From the IMG/VR virus record IMGVR_UViG_3300027759_003534, positions 118,567 through 182,566 of that record: 64,000 bases of DNA. The stretch is one strand, 5' to 3'. Each line of letters starts with the position of its first letter. Within the stretch, counting starts at the first letter, position 1. A program made the position numbers and the translations under genes. This document shows positions 2 through 52,677 of this stretch, piece by piece. A model generated the notes under the pieces. The model worked only from the letters and a program-made list of their open reading frames with translations, had not been told where the DNA came from and did no database searches. This DNA comes from a virus.

Positions 2-496
2 TTTCCTAACCACAACATTGTTTTTATACTTGGCAATTTTAAAAAATGTCTACAACGTGAGTGGATATTAGCTGGACATGAGAGATACATTCAAAAAAAC
101 ATACAACATACCTATGACTATGATAGGATAGAGCACTATAACGCATTTAAAGATAATTCGTGGCCAGCCTGTTTTACTATTAATGATATAGAAAATTTGC
201 CAGTTTCTATTCTTAACGAGATTACTCAAGAGTTTAAAAAAATACAAAAAAGACAAAATGCCACTAACATGCTAGCTGACCTTGAAAACCGTATAATTGG
301 TAAAGTGAACTCTGCATATGAAATTATATGTTGGCATAAAAATTATTATGATCAATATCCTTTGTTAATTTCAAATGAGTCTACAGTAATTGATATTAAT
401 TGTGATGAGGATATTTTTTCAAAAACAATGCAAAAAGAATTAGACTTCTACAACAGCGAAATATTTGATGAAGTGTGGAAGGAATTAAATGTCTAA
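2..496 (+). CDS. 5'-truncated hypothetical protein (frame open to window start)
   Basis: Frame 2 is open from nt 2 (FPNHNIVFILGNF...) into the 197..496 track ORF; contains YNAFKDNSWPACFTINDIENLP; stop overlaps the next ATG. Confidence 0.75.
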   Translation, partial: FPNHNIVFILGNFKKCLQREWILAGHERYIQKNIQHTYDYDRIEHYNAFKDNSWPACFTINDIENLPVSILNEITQEFKKIQKRQNATNMLADLENRIIGKVNSAYEIICWHKNYYDQYPLLISNESTVIDINCDEDIFSKTMQKELDFYNSEIFDEVWKELNV

Positions 497-1520
497 AGTA
501 AACGCATTCAATGGGTTTGATAAGTTAACAGAAGTATGGTTAGGCGATGTTTATCCAACGGATTTTTATCAAGATTTTGATTCAGAAGTTCGAGATGCCT
601 TTGAACAAATTACCGCGATGACTATTGAAGATCTTTCCAAGATACAAACAGTTTTAGAATCAAAAAATGTTAAGGTACAACGTCCTCAATTTAGTTCAAA
701 TCTTGAAAATTATCTCAACGATTCTGGAACTTTAATAAAACCTCCAATAATGCCTAGAGACACTGAATTATCCTTGGGTAATACGTTCTATCATTTAAGA
801 TCTGATTACAAAATAGATCCTTGGCAAAAACAAATTGATGCTATGCTAGACAATGGAGTAGACATAAAAGTTGGACCATCCGGAAATGATTTATCTTGTA
901 TACAGCCACCTAGTATAGTTCGTTGCGGCAATGATCTTTATGTTGACATTGATTCGCATAAGCATGTGATGCCTCAAATCGCGTTAACTTTAATAGAATG
1001 GTCGAAACAGTATAGGGTTCACTTGATTTCTACAGGTGGACATAGCGATGGTGTATTCTGTCCAATTCGTGAAGGATTACTTATTACCACTCACTGGATA
1101 GACGATTACAAAAAAACATTTCCGGGATGGGAAGTATTTAAAATACCCCGGGAGCTTACTGGTATTGCTGGATCTTTACAGAATTGGTGGGTTCCGGAGA
1201 TACAAATTTCGTCAAACAGTTTATTTGCAAAACATATAGAAGAAAGAGCAATAGATTGGGTTGGAAATTATCAAGAAACGCAATTTAGTGTCAACATGCT
1301 GGTTGTTGATCATAATACAGTGATTGCCGTAAATCAAAATCCTGTGTTGACTGAATTTTTAACCAAAAAAGGAATAGAAGTAATTATTGTTGATTTTAGA
1401 TGTAAAGAATTTTGGGATGGTGGTATGCATTGCCTAACGTGTGATACTCAACGCAATGGCTTGATTAAAAATTATTTTCCAGAGCGCCCAGTTGCAAACT
1501 ATTTAGATTGGATAAAATGA
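489..1520 (+). CDS. Amidinotransferase (glycine/inosamine-phosphate amidinotransferase family)
   Basis: N-terminal LTEVWLG, MPRD, GHSDG and C-terminal WDGGMHC catalytic Cys motif. Confidence 0.9.
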   Translation: MSKVNAFNGFDKLTEVWLGDVYPTDFYQDFDSEVRDAFEQITAMTIEDLSKIQTVLESKNVKVQRPQFSSNLENYLNDSGTLIKPPIMPRDTELSLGNTFYHLRSDYKIDPWQKQIDAMLDNGVDIKVGPSGNDLSCIQPPSIVRCGNDLYVDIDSHKHVMPQIALTLIEWSKQYRVHLISTGGHSDGVFCPIREGLLITTHWIDDYKKTFPGWEVFKIPRELTGIAGSLQNWWVPEIQISSNSLFAKHIEERAIDWVGNYQETQFSVNMLVVDHNTVIAVNQNPVLTEFLTKKGIEVIIVDFRCKEFWDGGMHCLTCDTQRNGLIKNYFPERPVANYLDWIK

Positions 1521-2929
1521 ACAACAAAGGCGACGAAAGTGTAAACAATAAAAGCAAGTTTCTCAGCGGTGCCGAGGAAATGCAAAATCTGCTTGGCCCA
1601 GCACTTTGTCTGGCCAAATGGAAACAGGTTAGTTTACATTTACCCACGGGCCTTAACAACAGTTGTTATCATCCTCCACTACACCCTATTCCCGCTGAGT
1701 TGTTGACTGATAATCCTGGTGCGCTACACAATACTCCACACAAAAAAGAACAGCGCAAGATCATGTTACGGCAAGAACGCCCTAGCGAATGTAGTTATTG
1801 CTGGGCTATGGAGGACAATGACAAGTTAAGTGATCGTCATTATCGCAGTGGTGAGCCATGGGCTGCCAAATACTTTGATATTATAACCAATTCAAATGGA
1901 GATGAAGATGTCATACCTAGTTATGTGGAAGTTAACTTTAATCATGCTTGTAATTTGGCATGTAGTTACTGTAGTCCTCAATTTAGTTCAACTTGGCAAC
2001 AAGAAATGGATCAGCATGGCGCTTACCCTACTAGCACTAGACACAACGATCCTAGTCATTTTGTTGGTCGCAATCGGCCTATCCCAGTTCGCGAGCATAA
2101 TCCCTATGTAGAAGCTTTTTGGGCCTGGTGGCCTACGCTTTATCCAGAACTAGAGCACTTTCGTATGACCGGTGGTGAGCCCATGTTGGACAAGAACACG
2201 TATAGAGTGTTTGATTATGTATTAGCCAACCCTAAACCCAACTTGCATTTAAACGTAACCAGTAATTTCAGTGTAGATGAAAAGACTTGGCAAAAGTATA
2301 AGGGATATGTAAAAGAATTATGCAAAGGTGAGCGGATTGAACACTTTATGCAGTTTGTTAGTCTGGACAGCTTCGGTGATCAAGCAGAATATATTAGACA
2401 CGGCTTGGACTTTGATCTGCTGTGGGATCGTGTAAATCAATTCTTAACAGAGATACCTGGACGTAATTCAATTACCTTTATTGTGACTATGAATAATCTT
2501 AGTGTAACAGGATTACCGCACCTGTTTGCTGGCATACTAGGCCTGCGTAAGTTATACAGCAAGACATATCAGCGTGTGTGGTTTGACACACCTGTGCTCA
2601 GACAACCCACATGGCAAAGCCTACAACTGCTACCAGAATCGTATGTGGATCAACTTGAACAACTTTGGGCTTGGATGATTCGTCAAATTGAAACAGAAGA
2701 AACTCGTTTCCACGGATTTAAAGACTACGAGATTGCTCGCTTGGACAGAGATATTGCCTGGATGCGTGATGGACAAAAGTTGGATCCTGCTGTGATCAAT
2801 TGTAATAAAGCAGACTTCTATAGATTCTTTGCAGAAGCTGATCGCAGACACAGTACAAACTTCTTAAAAACTTTTCCAGAAATGACAGCTTGGTGGAAAG
2901 AATGCAAATATTATGCTAAACAATCATAA
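1517..2929 (+). CDS. Radical SAM protein with N-terminal twitch/SPASM-like domain
   Basis: CNLACSYC, TGGEP, N-terminal Cys cluster (CLAKW..SCYHP..CSYCW); ATG 1517 overlaps upstream TGA. Confidence 0.9.
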   Translation: MNNKGDESVNNKSKFLSGAEEMQNLLGPALCLAKWKQVSLHLPTGLNNSCYHPPLHPIPAELLTDNPGALHNTPHKKEQRKIMLRQERPSECSYCWAMEDNDKLSDRHYRSGEPWAAKYFDIITNSNGDEDVIPSYVEVNFNHACNLACSYCSPQFSSTWQQEMDQHGAYPTSTRHNDPSHFVGRNRPIPVREHNPYVEAFWAWWPTLYPELEHFRMTGGEPMLDKNTYRVFDYVLANPKPNLHLNVTSNFSVDEKTWQKYKGYVKELCKGERIEHFMQFVSLDSFGDQAEYIRHGLDFDLLWDRVNQFLTEIPGRNSITFIVTMNNLSVTGLPHLFAGILGLRKLYSKTYQRVWFDTPVLRQPTWQSLQLLPESYVDQLEQLWAWMIRQIETEETRFHGFKDYEIARLDRDIAWMRDGQKLDPAVINCNKADFYRFFAEADRRHSTNFLKTFPEMTAWWKECKYYAKQS

Positions 2930-4052
2930 AATTGTATTAAACAATTTTTGTGAAATTGATCGTCTTATCCGCCCATTTGCCGATGACGAGTTTTACGATT
3001 TAACCAAGCACACTATAGTACCAGGCGCCATATACATAATTGGCCGAGAGCAATTTACAACTAACCGACAGCTTATTAAACAATTAGTTGATAGCGGTAC
3101 TATACGAGCAGTATTATGTAATCCTGCCGAGGGGTCTGAGTCAATGTATTGGTTATATCAGACATTAGGAATAGGCAATTTTACCAAACATGCCGCTGTT
3201 ATCACTGGCGGATATTTGCCCGATGGTATTCCGCATATGTACCATGAACATTTTCTACCGTTGATATTAGATTACGATGAAAACATAAAAGCTATAGAAG
3301 ATTATAAAAACAGAAAAACAACCGACCGCCCTTACAAATTTTTATTTTTAAATGGTAGATTGCGTGTACACCGAAAATATCTATTAGAATATTTTAGATT
3401 AACTGGGTTGTTAGACCAAAGTCTCTGGACAAATCTAGACCATAGAAATAGTCAGCCACCAAAACTAAAATTAGAACATAACGGACAAGATCTTATCAAT
3501 AGTCCATTTCCTGTACACTATCTACCAGCCCAATATGAGATCGACCGTTATCAACAACAAGCAGTTAAAGTGCCAACAGAGTTATCGGGCGACCTGGCTG
3601 CCAAACGATATTTGTTTAACAACGAATGGGGCGACATTTATATTGCACCCGCGCCTTACCTAGACACTTATTTTAGTTTAGTAACCGAAACAGTATTTGA
3701 TTATCCGTATACATTTAGAACAGAAAAAATTTGGAAACCTATAGCAATTGGACATCCGTGGATTGCCGCTACTAACCGTGGCTATTATAGAGATATGCAC
3801 AACCTAGGATTTAAAACTTTTGGACACCTAATTGACGAAAGTTTTGATCAAATAGAAAATGGTCAAGATAGAATTGAGCGTATAACTCAAGTAGTGGAGG
3901 ATCTTTGCCGGCAGGACCTTCCAGCTTTCTTAACAGCAGCCAAAGATGTGTGTAAATACAATCAACAATTGCTTGCGGAGTTAAGGATTAAAGTCCGCAG
4001 TGAGTTTCCTGATCGTTTCCACCAATTTATTAATCAACAATTCAATGCATGA
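2913..4052 (+). CDS. GT10 (fucosyltransferase)-like putative glycosyltransferase
   Basis: YFSLVTETVFDYPYTFRTEKIWKPIAIGHPW resembles the GT10 ENS..DY.TEK..K motif; paralogous to 15955 and 17148 ORFs. Confidence 0.5.
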   Translation: MLNNHKIVLNNFCEIDRLIRPFADDEFYDLTKHTIVPGAIYIIGREQFTTNRQLIKQLVDSGTIRAVLCNPAEGSESMYWLYQTLGIGNFTKHAAVITGGYLPDGIPHMYHEHFLPLILDYDENIKAIEDYKNRKTTDRPYKFLFLNGRLRVHRKYLLEYFRLTGLLDQSLWTNLDHRNSQPPKLKLEHNGQDLINSPFPVHYLPAQYEIDRYQQQAVKVPTELSGDLAAKRYLFNNEWGDIYIAPAPYLDTYFSLVTETVFDYPYTFRTEKIWKPIAIGHPWIAATNRGYYRDMHNLGFKTFGHLIDESFDQIENGQDRIERITQVVEDLCRQDLPAFLTAAKDVCKYNQQLLAELRIKVRSEFPDRFHQFINQQFNA

Positions 4053-5376
4053 TTTAGAATTCAAACAACAAGTGTTAGACACAAAGAGTGCCAGCTTTTG
4101 TGCAGCCAAGTGGTATAATGCTACTATATGGTTAGGTTCAGGACAGACTACAAGTTGTCATCACCCACCCGCACACAAGATTGATCTAGAAGAATTAAAA
4201 ACAAATCCAAAGGCATTACACAACACGGTAGAAAAGAAAATAGATCGATTGAACATGCAGTTGGGCAATCGTCCTAAGGGGTGTGAATATTGCTGGAAGA
4301 TTGAAGACATGGGCCGCGATAGTATTAGCGACCGTGTATATAAAAGTAAAATTTACCCTATAAAGGCCCTAGATGAAGCATATCAAACTCCGCATCAAGC
4401 AGATGTCAATTTACGTACACTGGAAATTGCGTTCGATCGCACTTGCCAATTTGCTTGTAGCTATTGTAACCCTGCTTTCAGTAGCACATGGGTTAAAGAC
4501 ATACGATCCAACGGTCCCTATGAGTCCTTGGTGTCTGATGGGCGTAACCACTTTACTCACGATCACCCTAGCAGTCAACTATACCGCGTTGGCGAAACTA
4601 ATCCCTATGTTGAAGCGTTCTTTGCTTGGTGGGAAACGGATCTTCACCGGACTCTTCAAGAGCTGAGGATCACTGGTGGTGAACCCTTAATGAGTGGCGA
4701 AACCTGGAAGCTGTTGGATTGGTTTAAAACCAATAAAGGTAAAAGCTCAACTCGGTTGGCCATCAACAGTAACTTGGGTGCAAAAGTGGATTTAGATCGT
4801 TTGCTAGACAGCATAGAAGGATTAGAAGTAGATATCTATACTAGTCAAGAAAGCGTATACAATCAAGCTGAATACATTCGAGATGGATTAGATTATGATG
4901 CTTGGATATCCAATGTTCAAAAGTTACTAGACAGCGACTGTGTAAGAGCTGTACATTGCATGGCTACTATCAACGCATTATGCTTAGATAGTTTGACTAG
5001 CTTGCTGTATCAATTGCTAGAATTTAAACAAATGTACGGGCGTGAGCGAGTGAGTTTTACACTGAACATTTTGCGTTTTCCTAGTTTTCAAAGTCCATTG
5101 GTATTGCCTGACGACTTGCGCACACACTATAAAGATCGATTACAAGACTTCCTGGATCGCAATCGCAACAATAAATTCATACACGAGCACGAGCTCAATC
5201 ACATACAACGGTTGATTGATTATCTAGATGTGGTTAAGACCCCGCATTCGGATTCATTTGATATGCCTAAATTGTTAAATGATTTTAAACAGTTTCATAC
5301 TCAATACGATCAGCGTCGTAACAAAAATTTTACCGCAACATTTCCTCAATTGGCAGACTGGTATAACACATTATGA
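4045..5376 (+). CDS. Radical SAM protein with N-terminal twitch-like domain
   Basis: CQFACSYC, TGGEP; paralogue of 1517 ORF; ATG 4045 preferred. Confidence 0.9.
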   Translation: MHDLEFKQQVLDTKSASFCAAKWYNATIWLGSGQTTSCHHPPAHKIDLEELKTNPKALHNTVEKKIDRLNMQLGNRPKGCEYCWKIEDMGRDSISDRVYKSKIYPIKALDEAYQTPHQADVNLRTLEIAFDRTCQFACSYCNPAFSSTWVKDIRSNGPYESLVSDGRNHFTHDHPSSQLYRVGETNPYVEAFFAWWETDLHRTLQELRITGGEPLMSGETWKLLDWFKTNKGKSSTRLAINSNLGAKVDLDRLLDSIEGLEVDIYTSQESVYNQAEYIRDGLDYDAWISNVQKLLDSDCVRAVHCMATINALCLDSLTSLLYQLLEFKQMYGRERVSFTLNILRFPSFQSPLVLPDDLRTHYKDRLQDFLDRNRNNKFIHEHELNHIQRLIDYLDVVKTPHSDSFDMPKLLNDFKQFHTQYDQRRNKNFTATFPQLADWYNTL

Positions 5377-7064
5377 ATTTAGATGATAAAATTATTGAAC
5401 TTAAAACAGCGTACAACGTAATTGACGTGGTAAATTTGGACCAGTGGAGTAACAGTATTAATGAAGGCAAAAACTGGCTCGAGCACACCTGTCGCCGTCT
5501 GCACAAGGATCCGTACAAAAACAATGAGCGTATTGTTTTTACACACTCGGCAGATTTTTACACAGAAGATGATTTAACAACAGCTGGGATTATACTTAGA
5601 AACTTACAAGTTATTTTAAATTCAGTTGATATATCAAACTTTTTTGTTATTGTTGTATCAACCAATAACAATATAGCAGAAGAGTGGAACATTATAAATG
5701 AACTAAGCAAAGACCCGGTGCCATTGGCAGTTGAAATTGTCGATGGAAAATTTACTCAAAACATTATAAAAGATTATTCAAAACGCCAGGAAACTTATAA
5801 ATATGGGTCAGTCGATCCTGTAAAAATACGATTAGACGAGCTTACAACTCAAGAAAAATTTTTACTTACAGAAAGTAAAACCTTCTGTATCTACCCCTGG
5901 ATACATCTACATGCTTATCCAACTGGGGAGGCATATCCTTGTTGTCATGCTGAAATGGCGTATCCGGTAGGCAATACAAAATTTAAAACCCTTGAAGAAA
6001 TATATCGTGATGCGCCCATGCGTGAGCTAAGAAAGGACATGCTGGCCGAGCAACCAAACCCTGCATGCGGTCGTTGTTACGAGCAGGAGGAAGCAGGTTT
6101 CTTCAGCGGTCGCCGGAGTGCCAACAAGCACCATGGACACCATGTCAAACGTATCGATGATGATCAGTTTCAAATGAGCTACTGGGATATTCGTTTCAGT
6201 AACTTATGCAACCTAAGTTGCCGTAGTTGTGGGCATATATTCAGCTCTAGCTGGTATCAAGATCAGGCCAAGTTGGCTGGTGGTGATTGGAAAGATCGCA
6301 ACCAAGTGTTAAACTATGCAGGCCGTACAGAGACAGACATGTGGGAACAGTTGATTCCGCATCTGGACTATGTAGAGCAAATTTACTTTGCTGGCGGCGA
6401 ACCCTTAATGATGAAGGAACACTACAACATTTTAGATGAACTGGAACGTCGTGGGCGGTTTGATGTCAGACTGATATATAATACTAACTTTACACATGTC
6501 AAGCTGAAGGATCGCACAGTATTTGATTATTGGAAACGCTTTAAAAGTGTAGCGGTAGGAGCCAGTTTAGATGCTATGGGCCCACGTGCAGAGTATATAC
6601 GAAAAGGCACTGAATGGGACCAAGTAGAACGCAATCGTGCGCAAATGCTAGAAATATGCCCCAATATAGACTTTTATATAAGCCCTACACTAAGCATAAT
6701 GAATGCACTACACCTACCAGAGTTTCACCGCAACTGGGTTGACAAAGGATTTATTAAACCGCAAGACTTGAATGTGAATATTTTGCAAGACCCAACGCAT
6801 TTCAGAATAGACATAGCACCTGTTGAATATAAGCAACGTATACAAGTAGCATACGAAGAACACTTGGAATGGTTGCGCCCATTGGATTCACTACAGCGAG
6901 CAACTGTGGGGTTTGAGAGTGCTATCAACTTTTTGATGTCCACAGACAATTCTGCATTGTTACCTAAATTTTGGTCGGCGTCTGACAAATTAGATCACAT
7001 TCGATCCGAAAGTTTATTAGACGTAGTTCCGGAATTGACATTAATCGAACAATATAGACAATAA
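5373..7064 (+). CDS. Radical SAM/twitch protein with N-terminal extension
   Basis: CIYPWIH..YPCC..CGRC twitch domain, CNLSCRSC, AGGEP. Confidence 0.9.
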   Translation: MNLDDKIIELKTAYNVIDVVNLDQWSNSINEGKNWLEHTCRRLHKDPYKNNERIVFTHSADFYTEDDLTTAGIILRNLQVILNSVDISNFFVIVVSTNNNIAEEWNIINELSKDPVPLAVEIVDGKFTQNIIKDYSKRQETYKYGSVDPVKIRLDELTTQEKFLLTESKTFCIYPWIHLHAYPTGEAYPCCHAEMAYPVGNTKFKTLEEIYRDAPMRELRKDMLAEQPNPACGRCYEQEEAGFFSGRRSANKHHGHHVKRIDDDQFQMSYWDIRFSNLCNLSCRSCGHIFSSSWYQDQAKLAGGDWKDRNQVLNYAGRTETDMWEQLIPHLDYVEQIYFAGGEPLMMKEHYNILDELERRGRFDVRLIYNTNFTHVKLKDRTVFDYWKRFKSVAVGASLDAMGPRAEYIRKGTEWDQVERNRAQMLEICPNIDFYISPTLSIMNALHLPEFHRNWVDKGFIKPQDLNVNILQDPTHFRIDIAPVEYKQRIQVAYEEHLEWLRPLDSLQRATVGFESAINFLMSTDNSALLPKFWSASDKLDHIRSESLLDVVPELTLIEQYRQ

Positions 7065-7066
7065 TC

Positions 7067-8395
7067 ATGACTGATAAAATTATAGGCAAATACAACTGGC
7101 AAGATCGAATTCCCAGTTACATTCCGTTAGAACAGCTAACCGACATTCAACGGCATAGACTAATGGAAAGTAAAACTTTTTGCATGTTACCTTGGATACA
7201 CTTACATGCATGGCCCGATGGCCGCGCTTATCCGTGTTGTTTAGGCAATGCTCGACATCCTGTGGGTAACTTTAAAGAAAAATCCATGAAGGAAATTTGG
7301 AACGACGACGCCATGCGGCAAATGCGAGTCAACATGCTCAATGATCAGCCTTGCAAGGAATGTAGTGACTGCTACGAGCAAGAAGAGTACGGCTTCGCTA
7401 GTATGCGCAACAACAGCAACAAAAACTTTGGACAGCACGTTGCCGAAGTAGAAGATACATTGCCCGACGGTTCCACGCCAAACTTTCAATTGCACTACTG
7501 GGATGTGCGCTTTAGTAATATATGCCAGCTCAAGTGCCGTAGTTGTGGCAGTATCTTTAGCAGTCGTTGGTATGATGATGATGTCAAGTTATGGGGTAAA
7601 GAACTGCGCCCACGTGTGCAGTTTGCTGGTCGTCATGAAAATGATGTATGGGAACAGATGCAAGAACATGTTCCGCACCTGGACCAAATATATTTTGCCG
7701 GCGGCGAACCCTTGATCATGGAAGAACATGCACGTATATTAAAGCTGCTGATAGAAAAAGGTAATACCAATGTTCGCTTGATTTACAATACCAATTTGAA
7801 TGAATTGCGTTATAAACGAGAATCAGTACTGGATCTATGGAAACATTTCCCCAATGTGTGCGTGGCTGCCAGTTTGGACGACATGGGAGCTCGTGCTGAA
7901 ATCATACGGTCAGGCACAAACTGGGCTCAAGTAGAACAAAACATTAGAGATTTAAAGCGTGAGTGTCCGCATATAGACTTCATGATCAGCCCTACACTCA
8001 GCATGATGAACATCTGGAACTTTACTAGATTCCACCGTTACATGGTTGATCAAGGATTTATACGAGCCCAAGACTTTAACTTGAACATATTACAAGGTCC
8101 CCAAGAATATCGTATAGATATGTTGCCAACTGATATCAAACAACAGTTCAAGCGAGAGTTTGAAGAACACATCCGTTGGTTAGAGCCGATCGACGGAATA
8201 CAACGTGCCACTGGTGGATTCCGTGGAGCTATTGAGTTTATGATGGCCACTGACAACAGCCATTTGTTACAGGGATTTTGGGAAACTGTCAATGATCTGG
8301 ATTGGAGCCGTAGTGAAAGTTTATTGAGTGTGGTTCCAGAGTTGGCGGCCATTGTCCAATATCGCCCCAAAGATAAAAGGATACCCCTTAAGTGA
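7067..8395 (+). CDS. Radical SAM/twitch protein
   Basis: CMLPWIH..YPCC..CSDC, CQLKCRSC, AGGEP; close paralogue of 5373 ORF. Confidence 0.9.
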   Translation: MTDKIIGKYNWQDRIPSYIPLEQLTDIQRHRLMESKTFCMLPWIHLHAWPDGRAYPCCLGNARHPVGNFKEKSMKEIWNDDAMRQMRVNMLNDQPCKECSDCYEQEEYGFASMRNNSNKNFGQHVAEVEDTLPDGSTPNFQLHYWDVRFSNICQLKCRSCGSIFSSRWYDDDVKLWGKELRPRVQFAGRHENDVWEQMQEHVPHLDQIYFAGGEPLIMEEHARILKLLIEKGNTNVRLIYNTNLNELRYKRESVLDLWKHFPNVCVAASLDDMGARAEIIRSGTNWAQVEQNIRDLKRECPHIDFMISPTLSMMNIWNFTRFHRYMVDQGFIRAQDFNLNILQGPQEYRIDMLPTDIKQQFKREFEEHIRWLEPIDGIQRATGGFRGAIEFMMATDNSHLLQGFWETVNDLDWSRSESLLSVVPELAAIVQYRPKDKRIPLK

Positions 8396-11912: not shown

Positions 11913-12010
11913 ACTGGATTCGTAACATATACAACCAAATTAAACTAGAGATACGCTATCGTAAGAAGCTGAAAGAACTGCGCAAGAGAGACCCGTTTAT
12001 ATACAAATGA
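11909..12010 (+). CDS. 33-aa basic peptide MNWIRNIYNQIKLEIRYRKKLKELRKRDPFIYK
   Basis: Not in the ORF track; ATGA overlaps at both ends (11909-11912, 12007-12010) indicate translational coupling. Confidence 0.75.
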   Translation: MNWIRNIYNQIKLEIRYRKKLKELRKRDPFIYK

Positions 12011-13479: not shown

Positions 13480-13480
13480 C

Positions 13481-14215: not shown

Positions 14216-14257
14216 AACCAGTATTCCCTATACCCACCGCTCAGGACTGCCGCTAGC

Positions 14258-14923: not shown

Positions 14924-14927
14924 CAGA

Positions 14928-15962
14928 TTATAGATACTGTTCCAGTCCACCGCGGCGGCGTAGATCCTGTGTACAGCATGAAATGCCACCGTCCCAGAAG
15001 TAACTATGTCGCAGTTCACTAATGATGGGTTCAATACCGTGGCTCCTACAGAAGTCAAACACTGGCTTGTTATAAGCACTGAAGATCACATTAGATTCAT
15101 CCAAGACCAAGCAGTTGACATCAAACACTGTTTCGGCCACAAAGCCGGTCCACTTTGACAGGTAGGTATCTACGAAACTAGTAAATTCTGGCGTGGGTGT
15201 TGACCCTTGCACATACCATGCTCCTGGACTAGTTTCATACTTGAACTTGCCCACTTCCATGGCCGCCCATATGCTCGAATCCCACACCTTGCATACCGAC
15301 CAACCTGGAAAGTCTCTGGCCAGATCAAGATGCATGTCGTGTTTACTGCTTAATATAACACCCGGCTTGAGGATAGCAAATACAGCATCTCCGTGTCCGT
15401 CTGTTACTGCTTCGTGTATACGATAACGCGAATCCAGCACATTCGCCACTATCCAAGCTGTCTGTTCCGGTCGCAAATAGTCACTATTATCAAAGAACAC
15501 ATCGCGCCCTACACGTACTATACAACTAGCTGACGCACCATTTAATATGCAATCAGTATCCCACGCTGACCTGTGTGGGTTAACAACTTGATCGCCAAAG
15601 TCTGCACATATTCGATCCAGTTCCGGCATGGCCAATACACGCAACAAACGATCACCCAGACTTATCTGCCAATCACGCGGAGTCAAGGGCGGTAGCGGGG
15701 CTCCTGAACCTGCAGTCTGATGCCATACAAATGAGTCTTTGCTGGGCAAGTCCGGACGACGTACACGGGCACCATAAGTCTCTATAACGCGACTTAATGC
15801 ATCTAAATCTTCTTCAGTTTCGGCTAATATTTGTTGCAACTGATGCCGCACTTGAGCATTGTCAATAAAGTCAAAATAGTCAGGACTATATGCCCGCCCT
15901 ACTATGACTTCTTCAAGCGGTTGCCAACTGGTATAACTGCTGATTCCTTCGGTATTATTCAT
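14928..15962 (-). CDS. Second amidinotransferase
   Basis: PLEEVIVG, LTPRD, GHGDA, WDGGISCC; paralogue of 489 ORF. Confidence 0.9.
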   Translation of the reverse strand: MNNTEGISSYTSWQPLEEVIVGRAYSPDYFDFIDNAQVRHQLQQILAETEEDLDALSRVIETYGARVRRPDLPSKDSFVWHQTAGSGAPLPPLTPRDWQISLGDRLLRVLAMPELDRICADFGDQVVNPHRSAWDTDCILNGASASCIVRVGRDVFFDNSDYLRPEQTAWIVANVLDSRYRIHEAVTDGHGDAVFAILKPGVILSSKHDMHLDLARDFPGWSVCKVWDSSIWAAMEVGKFKYETSPGAWYVQGSTPTPEFTSFVDTYLSKWTGFVAETVFDVNCLVLDESNVIFSAYNKPVFDFCRSHGIEPIISELRHSYFWDGGISCCTQDLRRRGGLEQYL

Positions 15963-17166
15963 TGTGTAATCTTTCGTATAAGCTATTTAAACGATCATAT
16001 TTACTGGCCAAAAATAATGCTTGATTATGTTCTAAGTCCCGTACACAGCTATTATACAGTGTAGTAGGATCTACTAGTAGTAGTTTGCGTATAGTAGCGA
16101 TTACAGCTAGATAACGCTGAGTATTATCCGCAATATGATCATATGAATTATCCAACACTGTGTCAAAGGTTCTATAGCCCATACGACGTAAACTAGCAAG
16201 CGATCCTGCTGGTGCAAACAACACAAACGGGTGACCATGCTTGATACACTTAAAGGTCTTTTCGGTTAGGAAAGCACCGCCCGACCCGTCGGCATCAAAG
16301 TGAGTTTCTAATATGATACTACACGCTGTAGACTCATAGTGTTGTGCTACGTGTTGACTGTGATCATTGTGCTGTGTGCTATCAAGCGCATCACATGTGT
16401 AAGGACCTGCTGTTAAGAACTTTTCTATATCTGACCGTATATCTAGTGTATCAAGCTCGACGGGACAGTCTTCTATACGATCGCCTACTGTTATGGCTGT
16501 ATTATAGCTCCACACAGCTGATCGCAACAATTCCTGGCGTTTAAGGTCCGTTACAACCGACGCTCGCCACCACTTGTGCGATCTAGACAATAATAAAAAA
16601 CTTGACCTCATGGGAACCCCGGTTTTAAGGAATTCTGGCTGTTTTGCTGGTATTTGACTATTTCTCATATAATATAATAACTCATGATCTGCGAAGTGTA
16701 CACAGCGTTCTATAGCATCTGCTGCTGTGTTTCCTGACACTAATCTATATACGTCCACGGGCAAGTCGTTCTTGATACATAGAGCATCTAACCGTTGTTT
16801 TATCCTTTTCGGGTCATCACCTTCATGATAATAAAATAATATCCTTAGGTTGCGTGTATTATCTGCTAATACGCATTTAATGTCGGGCGGTAACAGTGCT
16901 ACATAGTCTATCTCAAAACAAAAGAACCCAAACTGTACAGGATACCAGTGTCGCGCAGTATTAGCACTGTGCAAATACTCAAGGGTAGTCTTTAACTCAA
17001 AAAGATACCCATGCGCTTCACAGTGTGTGATCAACTCAACAGGTACTGTATACGGTCGATATTGTGAAAACTCACGCCAACTCTGTGTATACGGTTCAGC
17101 GGCATGAACAGCTAGATTGGGATATGCTCGCCCACGTTGGATACGATCTACGACAAATCTGAACAT
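15955..17166 (-). CDS. GT10-like putative glycosyltransferase
   Basis: SIILETHF...FLTEKTFKCIKHGHPFV...GYRTFD. Confidence 0.5.
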   Translation of the reverse strand: MFRFVVDRIQRGRAYPNLAVHAAEPYTQSWREFSQYRPYTVPVELITHCEAHGYLFELKTTLEYLHSANTARHWYPVQFGFFCFEIDYVALLPPDIKCVLADNTRNLRILFYYHEGDDPKRIKQRLDALCIKNDLPVDVYRLVSGNTAADAIERCVHFADHELLYYMRNSQIPAKQPEFLKTGVPMRSSFLLLSRSHKWWRASVVTDLKRQELLRSAVWSYNTAITVGDRIEDCPVELDTLDIRSDIEKFLTAGPYTCDALDSTQHNDHSQHVAQHYESTACSIILETHFDADGSGGAFLTEKTFKCIKHGHPFVLFAPAGSLASLRRMGYRTFDTVLDNSYDHIADNTQRYLAVIATIRKLLLVDPTTLYNSCVRDLEHNQALFLASKYDRLNSLYERLHNE

Positions 17167-18419
17167 AGGGTCTTTAACATTTGCTTTAATTCAACCTCTA
17201 GCACATCCCTGAATCCACCACGGTAGAAATGGTTCCAGTTGTGCTCTACTACAGGCAAAAGATCTTGTTGCAGTTGCTTTTTCGCAGCAGCGCTTCGCGC
17301 ATCTATCTCTAGTAATAGCTGGGCCACGGCCTCGATTCTTAGCACTGGGTCAGTTATGGTATCGTAGGTTTCATCTATATACGGAGCAAATGTTCTAAAT
17401 CCGTATTCTCTCAAGTATTCGAGACTGTGTGCGGGTGCTACCAGAACAAACGGCATTTCTAATGCTATTGCTTTGAATGTTTTTTCTGTCAAGTGAGTTC
17501 TGCGCCCAAAATACACTGTTTCAGTGGGCACATATATCATACTGTCGGCCGCTTCGGCCCAGTTGCCCAATTGATAACTGTGCATCAGTTGTTCTGCTTC
17601 GCCCTCAAATGTACAGGGCAAATCAGCCTGTTTAAACACTTGCTCTATGTCGGGATATATGTTATTATACTTGCTAGCCACTTGGCTTATATCTACACCT
17701 TCGTACTGGCAGAATCTTGGTGCTGATATATGGTTATGTTGCAGGTTGTTTTTGAATATGTTATAAAGGAATAGCACACGATGATCTCTTTTACCACCCA
17801 CAATACGATTGGGACTCATAAAGGTCTGTTGTGGATCTCGATCTCTTGCACGGGCTATTAAATATGTTTGATCATATCCGCGGAACCAATCTAAACAAGC
17901 CCATCCGTGATAAAAATAATAGTGTGCTGTCCAACCGTATTGTTTGGTCAATTCTTCAACATATTCGCCCTTTTCTGACACTACAATATGTCCCAAGTTA
18001 AACAGTTCGGTATTGTGTTTTCTAAACTCGGTAAATTTATCACGGCTATTTCTATAAAAATCAATAGCATTGCTGGGCTGACTCATAATAGCTTGTTTGG
18101 CCTGTGCTTGATAGTCAGTATCGGGCCAGTTTAATCTGGGGTTAACTAGGTGATCTGCAATGCTGTTTTGAGATAATATTAAATCGTAATTTCTCAACAG
18201 CACTTCGTCAAATAACGGTTTAAAAATGTCCAAATGTACAGGTTCTTGATCGTGAAAGTATATGTAATCAGTTTCTACTGCATCATCACTGCCCATGTTA
18301 AATAAACAATCAGGGCTGGTATTGCCCGGTGGATCACAAAAAAATACTCTAGTTCCAGATTTATTTTGCTCTATCCAGGGCCAGAAAGTATTGTTGTATA
18401 TTTCGTCTATTCTAATCAT
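17148..18419 (-). CDS. GT10-like putative glycosyltransferase
   Basis: ETVYFG..HLTEKTFKAIALEMPFV...GFRTF. Confidence 0.5.
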   Translation of the reverse strand: MIRIDEIYNNTFWPWIEQNKSGTRVFFCDPPGNTSPDCLFNMGSDDAVETDYIYFHDQEPVHLDIFKPLFDEVLLRNYDLILSQNSIADHLVNPRLNWPDTDYQAQAKQAIMSQPSNAIDFYRNSRDKFTEFRKHNTELFNLGHIVVSEKGEYVEELTKQYGWTAHYYFYHGWACLDWFRGYDQTYLIARARDRDPQQTFMSPNRIVGGKRDHRVLFLYNIFKNNLQHNHISAPRFCQYEGVDISQVASKYNNIYPDIEQVFKQADLPCTFEGEAEQLMHSYQLGNWAEAADSMIYVPTETVYFGRRTHLTEKTFKAIALEMPFVLVAPAHSLEYLREYGFRTFAPYIDETYDTITDPVLRIEAVAQLLLEIDARSAAAKKQLQQDLLPVVEHNWNHFYRGGFRDVLEVELKQMLKTLCSDLS

Positions 18420-18421
18420 TT

Positions 18422-20827
18422 ATGTTTGATATCTTTTATTCGGGAACTAAACCCAACTTATTTGCTCACGAGCGTGAAGCTCGAGATATAGAGCATGCAC
18501 GGACTCTAAGTCGTACTAGGTATTTTTGGTGGACCAATTATTTAACTGACTACACAGACTTTGACTTTTTATTTGAGCCGGTGCCGTGGCAAGCAGAATA
18601 TACTCATACTTGGCCCAGTCAATGGCATGAGTATTCGGGCACTTATCTTGTACCCGTAAATAATACACAAATACAATATTATTTTAATCAGCAAATACTG
18701 CCAAATCGAGATAGTAGCGGCAATTATAATAAAATAAAAGATAATATTGGCTTTGATTATACCTGGGCACCACATCCGTTTGATCCGCCATTTAATTACG
18801 TTTTTGGTAATCAATGGTATCCAGCAAATAAAATGCCCACAGTAGAATATCGGATGCCAGGCGCAGAAGAAACAAAATATATTTTTACTCCCAGAGCAGA
18901 GCTATTATCTAACAAAGACGATTGTTGGCAGACTTTAATTGCGTGTGAGTTTGATTATTCGTGGGTGCCCGATCCTGGCGACCCACCTTATATTTACATA
19001 TTTGGTAATCAGTGGTGGCCTGCTGTTAAAATGCCCACAGTAAAATATACTGTGCCCGGTGCAACTGAAATAAAGTATATGCCTTATCCTAGGGCACAAT
19101 TACTAATTAAAAATAATCAAGATAATTGGGAAATACCTGCAGATATTGATGCAGAAACATTTGATTATTCGTGGGTGCCCGATCCTGGAGATCCGCCGTT
19201 GGTATATCAATTCGGCACACAATGGCAAAAAACTGGTGGCCCTAAATATCGTGTAGCAGGTGCAACGGAAATAAAGTACATTACAGAACCCAGAGCTGAT
19301 AAAATTGTGCAAGATAATAATTGGACAATTCCGGATAATGTAGATACTAGTTCATTTGATTTTACCTGGCATCCGGACACAACAGAACAACCCTACATAT
19401 ATCAATTTGGTACACAGCATCAACGCACAGGTGGCCCACAATATCATGTTAAAGGCGCAACAGAAATCAAATATATTGATCAAATTAAAATTAAAACAGA
19501 GCGTGTTGCGTCTGCTATCTACGAAATAGATCATTTAGATGGTGCTGCAGGGCAACGTGCTGATGTGTTTCGAACTGTTAGATATTTTGACAATTATTTA
19601 GATACATTAAAACGCATAGCTAAAAATGCTCCAGATGATCAGGAGTTTGTTTGGATTTGCTCCAGCATCTGTGATTATAAAGATTTTGACTTTACATGGC
19701 ATCCAGAAGTATGGCAAGCAGGTATGCTACATGTATTTCCCAGTGATGGAGAAAAGTTTGGAGATACTTTCTTTATGCATGTTCCATCATTTCAATATCG
19801 TGCAGATAAGTTACAGTTATTGGATTGGTATGATGTTAATTATATGGATAAGAGTGTGCCACGCAGACCCGTGCCCATCGTACGACATAATTATGATACA
19901 CATGTAGAAGCAGTTAAACAAATAAATTTCGATGGACCCTTGGCTATTTTTACTACCGAAGATAAGCCGGATTATAATATACCCGCTGTTCCGCTGTGGA
20001 GAGAAAAGACCAAAACTATTGTGCCGTTAAGTGCTGGCGCTGGAATAACTATAATTCCTAAAGTGTGTGTTCCTTATATAAAGACGCAATTATATGATTA
20101 TCCCAATATACTTCGTACACAGCGGCATTTATATTCAGATACTCCGTTAGACATAGTGTTTATAGATAATGGCGAATCGAATGCAGAACAAAATTGGACA
20201 TTTTTAAATATAACAACCGCAAATAATAATAATCGAATACATCGCAGTTCAGGAGTCACGGGTCGAGTTGCAGCTTATCGTGCGGCTGCAGAATTAAGTA
20301 CCACTCCTTGGTTTTTTGCTGTATTTGCTAAATTAAAAATTGATCCCTTATTTAATTTTAATTGGCAACCTGATCGTTTACAGGAACCTAAGCATTATAT
20401 TTTTCATGCACAAAATCCTGTAAATGCATTAGTATATGGACATCAAGCCATGATAGCATATAATAAACAATTGGTATTGGAAAATACTGCACTGGGATTA
20501 GACTTTACCCTAGATCAAGCACACGAAGTAGTTCCTATCGTTTCAGGAACAGCTAATTATCACACAGATGCTTGGTCATGCTGGCGTACAGCATTTAGAG
20601 AATGTATTAAATTACAAAATAGTCCAGATGTAGAAAGTCAGTATCGTTTACGTCAATGGCTTACTAAAGATACTACCGAAGAACAATGGAGTCTTAAAGG
20701 TGCAGAAGATGCTGTGGAATATTACGATAGTGTTGCGGGAGACTTTGCTGAATTGAAGAAAAGCTATGACTGGGCCTGGTTGGCTAGTTATGCTTTGTTA
20801 AAGCGGAATCTAATACCGAGTCAATAA
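18422..20827 (+). CDS. 801-aa protein with tandem FDxxWxP repeats and possible glycosyltransferase-like C-terminus
   Basis: Long ORF; four ~65-70-aa internal repeats; C-terminal DIVFID..AYRAAA...WFFAVFAKL domain. Confidence 0.8.
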   Translation: MFDIFYSGTKPNLFAHEREARDIEHARTLSRTRYFWWTNYLTDYTDFDFLFEPVPWQAEYTHTWPSQWHEYSGTYLVPVNNTQIQYYFNQQILPNRDSSGNYNKIKDNIGFDYTWAPHPFDPPFNYVFGNQWYPANKMPTVEYRMPGAEETKYIFTPRAELLSNKDDCWQTLIACEFDYSWVPDPGDPPYIYIFGNQWWPAVKMPTVKYTVPGATEIKYMPYPRAQLLIKNNQDNWEIPADIDAETFDYSWVPDPGDPPLVYQFGTQWQKTGGPKYRVAGATEIKYITEPRADKIVQDNNWTIPDNVDTSSFDFTWHPDTTEQPYIYQFGTQHQRTGGPQYHVKGATEIKYIDQIKIKTERVASAIYEIDHLDGAAGQRADVFRTVRYFDNYLDTLKRIAKNAPDDQEFVWICSSICDYKDFDFTWHPEVWQAGMLHVFPSDGEKFGDTFFMHVPSFQYRADKLQLLDWYDVNYMDKSVPRRPVPIVRHNYDTHVEAVKQINFDGPLAIFTTEDKPDYNIPAVPLWREKTKTIVPLSAGAGITIIPKVCVPYIKTQLYDYPNILRTQRHLYSDTPLDIVFIDNGESNAEQNWTFLNITTANNNNRIHRSSGVTGRVAAYRAAAELSTTPWFFAVFAKLKIDPLFNFNWQPDRLQEPKHYIFHAQNPVNALVYGHQAMIAYNKQLVLENTALGLDFTLDQAHEVVPIVSGTANYHTDAWSCWRTAFRECIKLQNSPDVESQYRLRQWLTKDTTEEQWSLKGAEDAVEYYDSVAGDFAELKKSYDWAWLASYALLKRNLIPSQ
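18752..19490 (+). repeat. Four tandem intragenic repeats (FDY/FxWxPDPGDPPxxYxFGxQW...GAxExKY)
   Basis: 29-nt identity tttgattattcgtgggtgcccgatcctgg at 18950-18978 and 19160-19188 (210-nt period). Confidence 0.9.
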
Positions 20828-21869
20828 CGTATTCTACTTCTAGATCTGTTAATTCAGGATATAAGGGTAAACTTAATACTCGTCTACTTAAACTACTAGC
20901 AACACTTAATATATCAGTACCAGTATAATCTGAATAAGCAGGTAACTCGTGCAAGGGCTGTCGATAATGTACTCGAGTTTCAATACCTTTTATATCTAAA
21001 TTACGTGCAAGTATATCTCTAGCATCTACATCAATAACAAATTTGTGATAACAATGTGTTTCAAAGTTATTTGCATCAATTAAACTTCTAACTCCGCTAT
21101 TCTTTAAACGGCCCATCCAATATAATGCAATCGTCTTGCGACGAGCTTGCCACGCATCAATATACCGTGTTTTAATTAACATTTGCGCAGACTCTGTTTC
21201 ACTCATACGACTATTTGTTCCTATATTGGTATGAGCAGGCTTTCCATTATTTGTCCACTCGCGGGCAAATTCCAACAAGTCCATGTCATCGGTTACAACA
21301 GCGCCGCCATTGCCGTAGGCATTTAAGTTTTTCATAGGATCAAAACTAACGGCAGTAGCATTACCTATTCTATTACAGTTGTTGCTTAACCAATGTTGAG
21401 CACCATCTTCTATAATTAAATCTGTGCCCCAAAAGCGATCAGCATTTACTGCTGCACCGTATAAGCCAACCAACACAGTTGCTTGTACGCTTAGGTCGTG
21501 TGGTATTTTATTTTTGTTTAATAAGCCATGTGTGTCTGTATCGGCAATATATACTTCCCAACCAGCTCGCATAAATGCATTGGCAGTGGCCACATAAGTC
21601 ATTGCAGGTACGACCACCCTGGGTGGATTTGTGCTGGTTTGTGCGCGATAGTATTCGGCTATTATTTCTAAGGCTTGACTACCCGAGTGACAGGTCACAG
21701 CATACTTAGAGTGATTCTTTCGAGCTAACCAGTTTTCAAATTCAGCAGTATAATTGCCCGCCATGAGTTGACCCGAACGTAGCACTTCATCGGTGGCATC
21801 TAAGATCTCTGTGCGGAGATTATTATACTGTTTTTTGAGCCCAGTAAAGGGAATTTTAAGCCCGTTCAT
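20784..21869 (-). CDS. DegT/DnrJ/EryC1/StrS family PLP aminotransferase
   Basis: IIEDGAQH, SFDPMKNLNAYGNGGA, LSLPLYPEL. Confidence 0.95.
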   Translation of the reverse strand: MNGLKIPFTGLKKQYNNLRTEILDATDEVLRSGQLMAGNYTAEFENWLARKNHSKYAVTCHSGSQALEIIAEYYRAQTSTNPPRVVVPAMTYVATANAFMRAGWEVYIADTDTHGLLNKNKIPHDLSVQATVLVGLYGAAVNADRFWGTDLIIEDGAQHWLSNNCNRIGNATAVSFDPMKNLNAYGNGGAVVTDDMDLLEFAREWTNNGKPAHTNIGTNSRMSETESAQMLIKTRYIDAWQARRKTIALYWMGRLKNSGVRSLIDANNFETHCYHKFVIDVDARDILARNLDIKGIETRVHYRQPLHELPAYSDYTGTDILSVASSLSRRVLSLPLYPELTDLEVEYVIDSVLDSALTKHN

Positions 21870-21871
21870 TA

Positions 21872-22831
21872 TTATCTATTAAAATAAGGTGAATCTTTAA
21901 TCCATTTATAGTACCTTTGGAACCCTTCTTCAACATCAACTTTAGGATCGTAGCCAAGAATTACTCTAGCACGATTGATATCTAATGCTCCGCGACTGGG
22001 AAAGTCTGCACTTTTGTCTTGAACTTCTACTGTTCCTTTGCCTACAATTTCAACAATCATTTCTGCAGCTTTTAATAGTGTAACTGAATGTGATTTTGTA
22101 ATATTATATATGCGATTGGCACTCATGATACGGGTAGTGGCACTGACAATTCCGTCAACAACGTCGTCAACGTAGGTAAAGTCCAGGGTTTCCTCTGCAC
22201 CATTTACTCGAAGGATTTCTCCGCGCATGGCAGACAGCATGAATTTTGAAACAACTCGATCCTCGACATCAAGAGGACCATACACAGCACTGGGACGAAT
22301 AATAGTATAATCAAAAGCCCCGCGACGATGGTAATCTTTGACCAGTTGTTCTCCTGCCAGTTTCATAATGCCATATTGTCCAATAGGGTTGCATTCACTG
22401 TCCTCGGCAACCTGATCTTCAAAATCACCATATACCATTGAACTGCTAATATAAACAACACGTTCTACTTTATGACGTTTGGCACTCTCTAGAACATTAA
22501 TCAAGCCTTCCATCATGACTTGCGCACCCCACGCAGGATCGGCATTGACTACTTTTTGCCTGGGAAAACTAGCCAGGTGTATAACTGTATCTGGTTTATG
22601 CTCACGCACGACCCAATCAATTCCGTCGCGATCAGTGATATCAATTTGATAAATTCTATCTGTGACAATCTTTTTACGACGCTCGGCTATCAAGTAATCC
22701 AGTTCTGCTTGTGGCACAATACCATAGGTAGTTCTGGTATCGGTAATCACACAGGTATGACCCTTTGCTTCCAGGGCAGCCACTACATTGTGTCCAATAA
22801 ATCCTAAACCGCCGGTTACTAATATTTTCAT
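21872..22831 (-). CDS. NAD-dependent epimerase/dehydratase
   Basis: TGGLGFIG, YGIMK, IRPSAVYGP, LDFTYVDD. Confidence 0.95.
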   Translation of the reverse strand: MKILVTGGLGFIGHNVVAALEAKGHTCVITDTRTTYGIVPQAELDYLIAERRKKIVTDRIYQIDITDRDGIDWVVREHKPDTVIHLASFPRQKVVNADPAWGAQVMMEGLINVLESAKRHKVERVVYISSSMVYGDFEDQVAEDSECNPIGQYGIMKLAGEQLVKDYHRRGAFDYTIIRPSAVYGPLDVEDRVVSKFMLSAMRGEILRVNGAEETLDFTYVDDVVDGIVSATTRIMSANRIYNITKSHSVTLLKAAEMIVEIVGKGTVEVQDKSADFPSRGALDINRARVILGYDPKVDVEEGFQRYYKWIKDSPYFNR

Positions 22832-52645: not shown

Positions 52646-52677
52646 ACATATATTTATACCAATACCAACAAATCCTA

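Follow-up and report, generated by a model that had tools for sequence, protein, structure and literature searches.

The final 64 kb of the IMG/VR virus record IMGVR_UViG_3300027759_003534 (64,000 nucleotides, positions 118,567 to 182,566; hereafter the window) carry a block of genes, termed the island, with two putative amidinotransferases (AmT1 and AmT2), an array of predicted radical S-adenosylmethionine (rSAM) enzymes, a putative O-carbamoyltransferase, predicted nucleotide-sugar enzymes and proteins with glycosyltransferase (GT) folds. The record is a 182.5-kb virus sequence, 49% complete by CheckV. It contains a T4-type Gp23 capsid gene, and its close relatives measure 320-364 kb, three of them with direct terminal repeats; this agrees with the phage origin assumed in the initial annotation, and the source is a T4-like jumbo phage from freshwater. 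The public sequencing runs containing the stretch were freshwater metagenome DNA only, and no RNA was listed among them. The island is real, conserved and biochemically uncharacterised. Its open reading frames (ORFs) are listed below, with lengths in amino acids (aa), E-values for profile matches, and N-twitch standing for N-terminal-twitch.

2-496, plus strand: ORF of 233 aa (C-terminal part in the window), function not assigned; no Pfam or PHROG match
489-1520, plus strand: AmT1, putative accessory amidinotransferase of the AGAT/StrB1 family; PDB matches AGAT, HsvA, SxtG and StrB1; phrog_25854
1508-2929, plus strand: predicted N-twitch rSAM 1; NF033640 3e-90; CX3CX2C at residue 148, four N-terminal Cys
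2913-4052, plus strand: putative GT-B-type paralogue (379 aa); invariant C-terminal E...TEK...G...D...R columns common to the 403-aa and 423-aa proteins
4000-5376, plus strand: predicted N-twitch rSAM 2; NF033640 2e-87; Cys motifs
5373-7064, plus strand: predicted N-twitch rSAM 3 with an extra 170-aa N-terminal extension; NF033640 2e-116; Pfam SPASM 172-236, Radical_SAM 274-420
7067-8395, plus strand: predicted N-twitch rSAM 4; NF033640 1.5e-121; SPASM 39-102, rSAM 148-306
8392-9615, plus strand: predicted N-twitch rSAM 5, core; NF033640 6e-102
9593-10897, plus strand: predicted N-twitch rSAM 6, core; NF033640 2e-81
10881-11912, plus strand: conserved 343-aa protein, fold and function not assigned
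12007-13479, plus strand: putative NodU/CmcH-family O-carbamoyltransferase; Carbam_trans_C 1e-47, Carbam_trans_N 9e-38; phrog_1601 'Nol-like carbamoyltransferase' 1e-86
13481-14923, plus strand: variable slot with two accessory ORFs of 244 aa (N-terminal GDS motif) and 221 aa; no family matches
14928-15962, minus strand: AmT2, putative core amidinotransferase of the AGAT/StrB1 family; PDB matches AGAT (2e-16), HsvA, SxtG and StrB1
15955-17166, minus strand: predicted GT-B glycosyltransferase (403 aa); AlphaFold2 (AF2) pLDDT 84.7, pTM 0.86
17148-18419, minus strand: putative GT-B paralogue (423 aa), by alignment to the 403-aa and 379-aa proteins
18422-20827, plus strand: 801-aa multidomain protein; about four beta-rich 65-aa repeats, then two nucleotide-sugar-transferase-like domains
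20784-21869, minus strand: putative pyridoxal phosphate (PLP) aminotransferase, DegT/DnrJ/EryC1/StrS; Pfam PF01041 3e-55, 188.5 bits against a cut-off of 19.8
21872-22831, minus strand: putative nucleotide-sugar epimerase/oxidoreductase of the extended short-chain dehydrogenase/reductase (SDR) type; Pfam Epimerase 4e-48
22828-23403, minus strand: ORF of 191 aa, function not assigned; no match in 80 related loci
23348-24934, minus strand: predicted N-twitch rSAM 7 (528 aa), at the strain-specific edge; NF033640 5e-88; matches paralogues only, at about 30%, in the 80 loci

The two amidinotransferase genes, which the initial annotation had called intact at 489 and 14928, are intact ORFs whose products share 29% identity (E 9e-40). 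Among solved structures, the single sequences matched only AGAT, HsvA, SxtG and StrB1, besides weak matches to arginine deiminase. A profile built from 22 phage sequences aligned over its full length to StrB1 (2e-41), AGAT (9e-37), HsvA (2e-36) and SxtG (3e-32); the score to StrB1 was 145 bits, with a lead of only 15 bits over AGAT and HsvA, and such bit scores are a rough gauge of kinship to StrB1, AGAT and SxtG. On these matches, AmT1 and AmT2 are assigned to the AGAT/StrB1 amidinotransferase family, within the superfamily of guanidino-group-modifying enzymes. The equivalents of AGAT Cys407, His303, Asp305 and Asp170 are C329, H190, D192 and D97 in AmT2, and they were invariant in the 22 phage sequences, an alignment that takes in AmT1 and three other paralogue types. 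The AGAT triad residue Asp254 (FDAAD; FDAAN in StrB1) aligns, in a gapped segment, with Asn141 of AmT2 (LNGAS, kept in orthologues) and, in an alignment that is also gapped, with a Ser of AmT1; Asp is found there only in other paralogue types. In AGAT, the Arg322 loop holds the substrate carboxylate. This loop (NPDRP; NPSRV in StrB1) does not appear to be kept, and the corresponding residues of AmT2 in a gapped alignment are SKHDMH. The predicted activity of both enzymes is presumably arginine-dependent amidino transfer.

AmT2 is the core and most conserved gene of the island. Conservation was examined in 80 related viral loci around AmT2, 50 of which have full 10-kb flanks, and AmT2 was present in all 50 and in 26 of 26 long relatives. 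Its identity in four relatives was 82-86%, where the major capsid protein reached 90-97% and the remaining genes of the island 43-85%. The metagenomic homologues of AmT2 number more than 1599. Since AmT2 is nearly as conserved as the capsid protein and has this many metagenomic relatives, the pathway is clearly important to abundant giant lake phages. AmT1 is accessory, a strain-level insertion and not part of the island core: AmT1 and the 233-aa ORF form a joint insertion, and both are missing at the site in two complete relatives (G002 and G003). The relatives of AmT1 diverge fast, identity dropping from 94% to 44% across the best 120, and near-complete genomes of the clade have between two and four amidinotransferase paralogues, placed at dispersed sites.

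The carbamoyltransferase, DegT aminotransferase and epimerase named in the initial annotation at 12007, 20784 and 21872 are intact ORFs too, and all were recovered by profile searches. The product of 12007-13479 scored 131 bits for Carbam_trans_N (Kae1-like) and 162 bits for Carbam_trans_C, against Pfam cut-offs of 24 and 27, and by these two domains it is assigned to the NodU/CmcH O-carbamoyltransferase family; its 129 bits fall short of the 1000 demanded of a NodU equivalog. The DegT protein fell below every NCBIfam equivalog cut-off. Its nearest PDB entries were 7b0d, QdtB, DesV and WbpE (E 1e-33 to 1e-41), with NtdA also among the closest, and it was equally close to the 3-aminotransferases (QdtB, DesV, WbpE, NtdA) and to an entry named glutamine-scyllo-inositol transaminase. 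Two motifs were read by eye in the translation, EDGAQH and SFDPMK, the latter of which we take to be the PLP-lysine motif. By profile and motif, the protein is assigned to the DegT/DnrJ/EryC1/StrS sugar aminotransferases, with the PLP lysine kept. The SDR was equidistant (about 1e-25 to 1e-29) from the PDB entries for RmlB, UDP-GlcA 4-epimerase, GalE and UXS, and the motifs GxxGxxG, SSSMVYG and YxxxK could be recognised by eye. Ser-Ser-Ser-Met presumably stands in place of the Thr-Asp-Glu (TDE) of 4,6-dehydratases, so the SDR would lack the TDE dehydratase pair, and a role as epimerase or oxidoreductase seems likelier for it than one as dehydratase.

Six overlapping N-twitch rSAM genes occupy 1508-10897, with the 379-aa gene (2913-4052) in between, and the seventh lies at 23348-24934. 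The twitch rSAMs reported initially therefore number seven above the cut-off of NF033640 (N_Twi_rSAM), with scores of 274-406 bits against a cut-off of 170 (E 1e-81 to 1e-121). Every one of the seven has a single CX3CX2C motif with four to five conserved Cys ahead of it, and by these scores all are classified as members of NCBIfam NF033640, with the twitch/SPASM-like cluster N-terminal. We found no experimentally characterised member of NF033640, and the family has a name only. The BtrN analogy in the initial annotation found no support at the level of sequence, where the rSAMs are not BtrN-like: a search of PDB sequences returned no BtrN match, and the sole match (E 0.02) was to a lipid synthase.

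The GT-like genes of the initial annotation were supported by structure models. For the 403-aa protein, the top Foldseek matches were all GT-B (probability 0.9-1.0), and the highest VIA Z scores were to T4 beta-glucosyltransferase (12.0), alpha1,3-fucosyltransferase (11.0), and exostosins and T4 alpha-glucosyltransferase (10.7). These VIA matches (Z 10-12) span residues 1-403 of the model, and the gaps between rows lie at or within the tie margin. As modelled, the 403-aa protein has the GT-B fold and is a predicted glycosyltransferase. The 379-aa and 423-aa proteins are probably GT-B-type as well, an assignment made through alignment to the 403-aa paralogue alone. A Pfam scan of 29 GT-B paralogues (E <= 5) found no glycosyltransferase family. 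The AF2 model of the 801-aa protein had a pLDDT of 73.9. Its Foldseek neighbours included Mimivirus R699, LH3, K4CP and PBCV-1 A64R, and its two-domain matches were the Mimivirus collagen glucosyltransferase R699, human LH3 and chondroitin polymerases. Residues 571-715 matched GT-A enzymes at Z 10-12 (root-mean-square deviation about 3 A over 130-140 residues), and in the model they form a GT-A-type domain, a candidate glycosyltransferase. The repeats of this protein (window 18722-19500, residues about 100-360) carry the motif W-x-P-D-P-x-x-P-P-Y-I-Y-x-F-G-N-Q, which no other gene on the contig has; the orthologues are 734-1199 aa long and vary in repeat copy number. In the protein atlas, the 801-aa protein matched viral unnamed clusters only, with a weak GT2 lead (0.85).

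The 343-aa protein averages 70% column identity and has numerous invariant His, Glu, Asp and Cys residues, but no match in Pfam, NCBIfam, PHROG or PDB and no usable match in the protein atlas. Its family comprises 512 clusters at 50% identity, among which there are no functional names and 'hypothetical protein' is the most that is given. Family profiles of the 343-aa, 403-aa and 801-aa proteins retrieved nothing from the PDB sequences, and hhalign related the 343-aa family to neither the GT-B nor the AmT family. The 343-aa family also has longer, fused members of 745-770 aa; a fusion to an rSAM like the one encoded upstream was considered for these and rejected, as they have no rSAM part.

Gene order was identical in all inspected related loci. 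All 50 full-flank loci contain, besides AmT2, the carbamoyltransferase, the SDR, the 801-aa protein, the 423-aa GT-B protein and the rSAM of 9593-10897; the rSAM of 8392-9615 was found in 49, and the DegT and 343-aa genes in 45 each. The initial annotation had named a lack of co-conservation as the observation that would speak against a shared pathway, and AmT2, the carbamoyltransferase and the SDR (50/50) and DegT (45/50) are co-conserved. The inspected loci without a DegT of the window type (L073 and L078) have a divergent DegT at the same place, with an additional or alternative SDR. Strain-specific genes occur at both island edges and in the slot that separates AmT2 from the carbamoyltransferase. 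Among the 80 loci, the 244-aa slot ORF was found in eight and the 221-aa ORF (14258-14923) in one, and relatives hold other genes there. The latter ORF was the sulfotransferase-like gene of the initial annotation, a label that found no backing in Pfam, NCBIfam or PHROG at E <= 0.01. At the downstream edge, the SDR gene of relatives is followed by ThyX or another flanking gene, with neither the 191-aa ORF nor rSAM 7. The glycosyltransferases are the fastest-evolving island members (43-59% identity). Conserved tailoring enzymes, diverging glycosyltransferases, and swappable slots and DegT-SDR cassettes together are the pattern of diversifying glycan loci.

The island lies invariably directly downstream of a baseplate and fibre gene block, on the same strand. 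From upstream to downstream, the order is a gene for a gp5/VgrG-like baseplate protein, the fibre ORF given below, nine small conserved ORFs and the island.

Contig 97192-111939 (L103:92-14839), upstream of the window: fibre ORF of 4915 aa; CBM_5_12 and FG-GAP repeat matches, Thr-rich (10.8%), kept in relatives

The contig and four relatives of 92-100% completeness were searched, with positive controls, for enzymes that would commit the pathway to a particular target. The cyclitol synthases, DHQS-like (PF01761) and inositol-1-phosphate synthase (PF01658), were absent from the contig and the relatives alike. The streptidine analogy of the initial annotation loses its footing here, and the aminocyclitol reading is disfavoured, although host inositol might serve as a starting material. 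Sugar-1-phosphate nucleotidyltransferases were also absent from the contig and the four relatives, so the pathway has to take its nucleotide sugars from the host. The same genomes lack lipid-linked glycan machinery (WbaP-type PF02397, WecA-type PF00953 and the Wzx flippase PF01943), and none of the island proteins contains a membrane segment. With no membrane segment, initiating transferase or flippase, the pathway is cytoplasmic. Entry enzymes for DNA hypermodification, namely the ThyA/dCMP-dUMP hydroxymethylase and TGT/DpdA families, were absent from the contig and the four relatives as well, and the island proteins are acidic to neutral (pI 4.8-6.9; glycosyltransferases 5.2-6.3), which makes DNA an unlikely acceptor. 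The remaining acceptors are a cytoplasmic soluble protein or a free small molecule. The 801-aa protein resembles, in its model, tandem GT-A enzymes that act on proteins (R699, LH3, PBCV-1 A64R), which would count for a protein acceptor. A virion protein, and in particular a fibre protein, is probably the best guess, because the island sits behind the fibre genes and because an amidinotransferase has been detected in virions of the Synechococcus phage S-SCSM2R (PMC12801897). Among the targets listed in the initial annotation, the absence of entry enzymes thus disfavours host-surface masking and DNA, and virion protein is the one that we infer.

We tentatively favour, at slightly below an even chance, the reading that the island is a soluble cytoplasmic pathway that tailors host nucleotide sugars into a glycan on a non-lipid acceptor, likeliest a virion protein. 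A sugar chain with amino, guanidino and carbamoyl groups is the most likely product. A keto-sugar would be supplied by the SDR, by a radical SAM enzyme or by both, and would then be converted to an amino-sugar by DegT, whose nearest relatives work at C-3. AmT2 would move an amidino group, presumably from arginine, onto that amine to give a guanidino-sugar, and a hydroxyl would be O-carbamoylated by the NodU/CmcH enzyme. The six or seven N-twitch rSAM paralogues could perform oxygen-independent C-H chemistry at single sugar positions, for which epimerisation, dehydrogenation and deoxygenation are candidates. The three GT-B enzymes and the 801-aa GT-A-type protein would assemble the chain on the acceptor, likeliest a virion protein and above all the giant fibre encoded immediately upstream. 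The outcome would be a cationic, variable glycan coat on the particle. The guanidinylated or carbamoylated amino-sugar pathway of the initial annotation is thereby retained as amino-sugar chemistry, which is plausible and whose genes are co-conserved, and its aminocyclitol part is given up.

Gene identities, folds, catalytic residues, synteny, conservation and the lack of entry enzymes for other targets are the ground on which this tailoring pathway stands. Several points weigh against it. We infer the step order, substrates, amidino donor and acceptor, and the chemistry would follow from family membership. Owing to the apparent replacement at Asp254 and the seemingly unconserved Arg322 loop, the donor and acceptor of the AmTs may depart from the textbook reaction. 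The nearest structural neighbour of the 403-aa GT-B protein is T4 DNA beta-glucosyltransferase, with a lead at the tie margin, and residues 571-715 of the 801-aa protein also match the nucleotidyltransferases IspD, MobA and HddC at Z of about 10. The conserved 343-aa protein is not explained by the proposed steps, and the adjacency of the island to the fibre gene is circumstantial as evidence for the acceptor. In addition, a metagenome-assembled genome (MAG) contig labelled Pseudobdellovibrionaceae (L100, 1-21056) codes for one AmT, 29% identical to AmT2, among at least 13 rSAM genes, and no DegT was detected in its 21 kb. In distant lineages, namely this locus and Campylobacter phages, the constant partner of the AmT is an rSAM array and not DegT, and such a partnership suits a non-sugar amine acceptor equally well.

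The last point leads to a serious rival, direct modification of protein side chains, in which the AmTs and N-twitch rSAMs would act on protein or peptide (lysine to homoarginine, cross-links, epimerised side chains) with glycosylation as an added layer. The recurrent AmT and rSAM-array partnership without DegT (L100; Campylobacter phages, PMC2853527) speaks for it, as does an 808-aa protein with an Asp/Asn beta-hydroxylase domain that L100 encodes beside its AmT and rSAMs. Peptide maturases are among the weak secondary NCBIfam matches of the rSAMs, the AmTs of S-SCSM2R are surrounded by 2-oxoglutarate (2OG) oxygenases that include annotated prolyl or leucine hydroxylases, and the 801-aa protein resembles collagen glycosyltransferases. 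However, the contig shows no collagen-like repeats, and neither a precursor peptide nor a repeat-rich gene for an acceptor came to light. The nucleotide-sugar enzymes DegT and SDR are conserved in the island, and among the AGAT-family matches listed, no characterised member acts on protein. On balance, we regard this explanation as unlikely.

Similarly unlikely, in our judgment, is a free aminoglycoside-like molecule or pseudo-oligosaccharide, released or kept in the cell, that would act against competing phages or microbes or modulate the host. The AmT profile fits StrB1 best (2e-41), the top PDB entry of DegT is the one named glutamine-scyllo-inositol transaminase, all of the enzymes are soluble and no acceptor was found; moreover, the authors of the S-SCSM2R study call related genes 'antibiotic synthesis genes' (PMC12801897). 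Yet the preference for StrB1 is just the 15 bits given above, the cyclitol synthases are missing from the four complete relatives, and the island has no exporter or membrane protein. A macromolecular glycan is a better match for glycosyltransferases that diverge fast, for an 801-aa transferase with repeats and for an island that keeps its place behind fibre genes. Saxitoxin-like chemistry, suggested by an amidinotransferase together with a carbamoyltransferase, was considered and dropped: SxtG was the weakest of the four PDB matches, and annotation gave nothing like a polyketide-like starter enzyme.

T4 glucosylates hydroxymethylcytosine. In a like manner, the island could hypermodify the phage DNA with decorated sugars for evasion of restriction; in favour are the T4-like character of the phage, a ThyX gene adjoining the island and a GT-B protein whose VIA matches include both T4 glucosyltransferases. 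We consider it rather improbable: no known DNA handle is encoded, with ThyA/hydroxymethylase and TGT/DpdA absent from the four complete relatives, the island proteins are acidic to neutral, and the Z lead of T4 beta-glucosyltransferase over fucosyltransferases and exostosins is at the tie margin. Remodelling of the host envelope (lipopolysaccharide or capsule) for receptor masking or superinfection exclusion is very improbable; phage GtrABC-type systems act in this way and O-antigens contain carbamoylated and amino sugars, but the island has no membrane protein, PF02397, PF00953 and PF01943 are absent, and masking would be of little gain to a lytic jumbo phage.

A wider form of the virion-protein reading, that in several jumbo-phage lineages a branch of AGAT-family AmTs specific to viruses and N-twitch rSAMs together put guanidino (and carbamoyl) groups on virion-protein glycans or side chains, is doubtful at present. 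If guanidino or carbamoyl groups are indeed placed there, virions would be hypermodified in a way not described before, and this would change particle charge, host recognition or environmental stability. Solving the pathway would also give a first function to the N-twitch rSAM family (NF033640) and to the 512-cluster 343-aa family, and would reveal the role of an AGAT-type enzyme in a virus.

Further genes in the window lie downstream of the island.

25654-26316, minus strand: ThyX-type thymidylate synthase; RHRxxSxxxxSQRY motif by eye; next to the island in most relatives
29080-30372, minus strand: HNH endonuclease; phrog_1314 4e-107; in 15 of 80 related loci
48560-49648, minus strand: extra radical SAM gene outside the island; phrog_14086 1e-13
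50739-51980, minus strand: UDP-glucose dehydrogenase-like gene, second nucleotide-sugar block
52678-53439, minus strand: NAD synthase-like gene, same block
55214-56023, minus strand: short SDR, same block
56553-57173, minus strand: ORF resembling a fragment of a thiamine pyrophosphate-dependent E1 dehydrogenase, same block
57170-58489, minus strand: aminotransferase, same block
59205-60155, minus strand: Gmd/RmlB-like SDR, same block

The HNH endonuclease near the island is probably a mobile homing-type insertion. Counting 48560-49648, the window contains at least eight radical SAM genes. The second nucleotide-sugar block (50739-61764, minus strand) may supply precursors to the island. The T4 late-promoter motif TATAAATA occurred at chance frequency (7 observed against 5.6 expected), and scans for sigma-70 promoters and terminators were uninformative. 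A scan of genome contigs found only seven loci, each on a MAG contig, and gave no context in a bacterial donor. The best of the seven (L095, a 148-kb contig labelled Haliscomenobacter sp.) holds a fully syntenic island copy, 80% identical; it seems to be a phage contig that binning placed in a bacterial MAG and is at most a weak hint of the host.

The initial annotation described such a phage pathway as not characterised, which is true biochemically, whereas related gene sets, the nearest counterparts described so far, have already been published, as annotations only (PMC2853527; PMC12801897). The Campylobacter phages CP220 and CPt10 carry a module of radical SAM proteins and a putative glycine amidinotransferase (Timms et al., 2010; PMC2853527). 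They and their relatives (e.g., vB_CjeM_WX1) share with the lake phage a T4-like myovirus background and tandem rSAMs, an AGAT-family AmT and an aminotransferase in one block, which comprises five rSAMs, the AmT and a class I/II aminotransferase. The Campylobacter 'glycine amidinotransferase' is 24% identical to AmT1, and was not detected with AmT2 at E 1e-5. In contrast to the island, the Campylobacter module is smaller, has no carbamoyltransferase or annotated glycosyltransferases, and has a class I/II instead of a DegT aminotransferase.

In the cultured T4-like Synechococcus phage S-SCSM2R, it is the amidinotransferase ORF266 that was detected in purified virions (PMC12801897, 2025). AmT1 and AmT2 are 26-30% identical to ORF266, and both reach it by tblastn. 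Similar to the island, ORF301-310 of this phage form a co-directional operon with glycosyltransferases, a DegT-like 'AHBA synthase', an rSAM and an 'inosamine amidinotransferase', the second AmT. However, S-SCSM2R has 2OG-Fe(II) oxygenases where the lake phage has N-twitch rSAMs, and its operon is without an annotated carbamoyltransferase. The authors' reading of antibiotic synthesis was given without experiments (PMC12801897). Because S-SCSM2R and the CP220-like Campylobacter phages are in culture and carry related modules, the question can be taken to bench experiments.

The streptidine branch, in which StrB1 follows a StsC-type transamination, has in common with the chemistry proposed for the island the DegT-family conversion of a ketone to an amine, followed by AGAT/StrB1-family amidino transfer from arginine. 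The phage differs in having no cyclitol synthase and in having four GT-fold proteins and seven N-twitch rSAMs; its AmTs are distant (145 bits by profile), with Asn or Ser aligned to the triad Asp of AGAT/StrB1. PBCV-1 A64R and Mimivirus R699 (PMC9546862, PMC12279948) are virus-encoded cytoplasmic glycosyltransferases that act on structural proteins, and both are fold neighbours of the 801-aa protein. These systems belong to eukaryotic viruses and have no AmT, carbamoyltransferase or rSAM, and the likeness is one of fold only, at 7-14% identity. Solving the island pathway would put to the test the idea that phages make complex glycans of their own on the virion, as giant eukaryotic viruses do.

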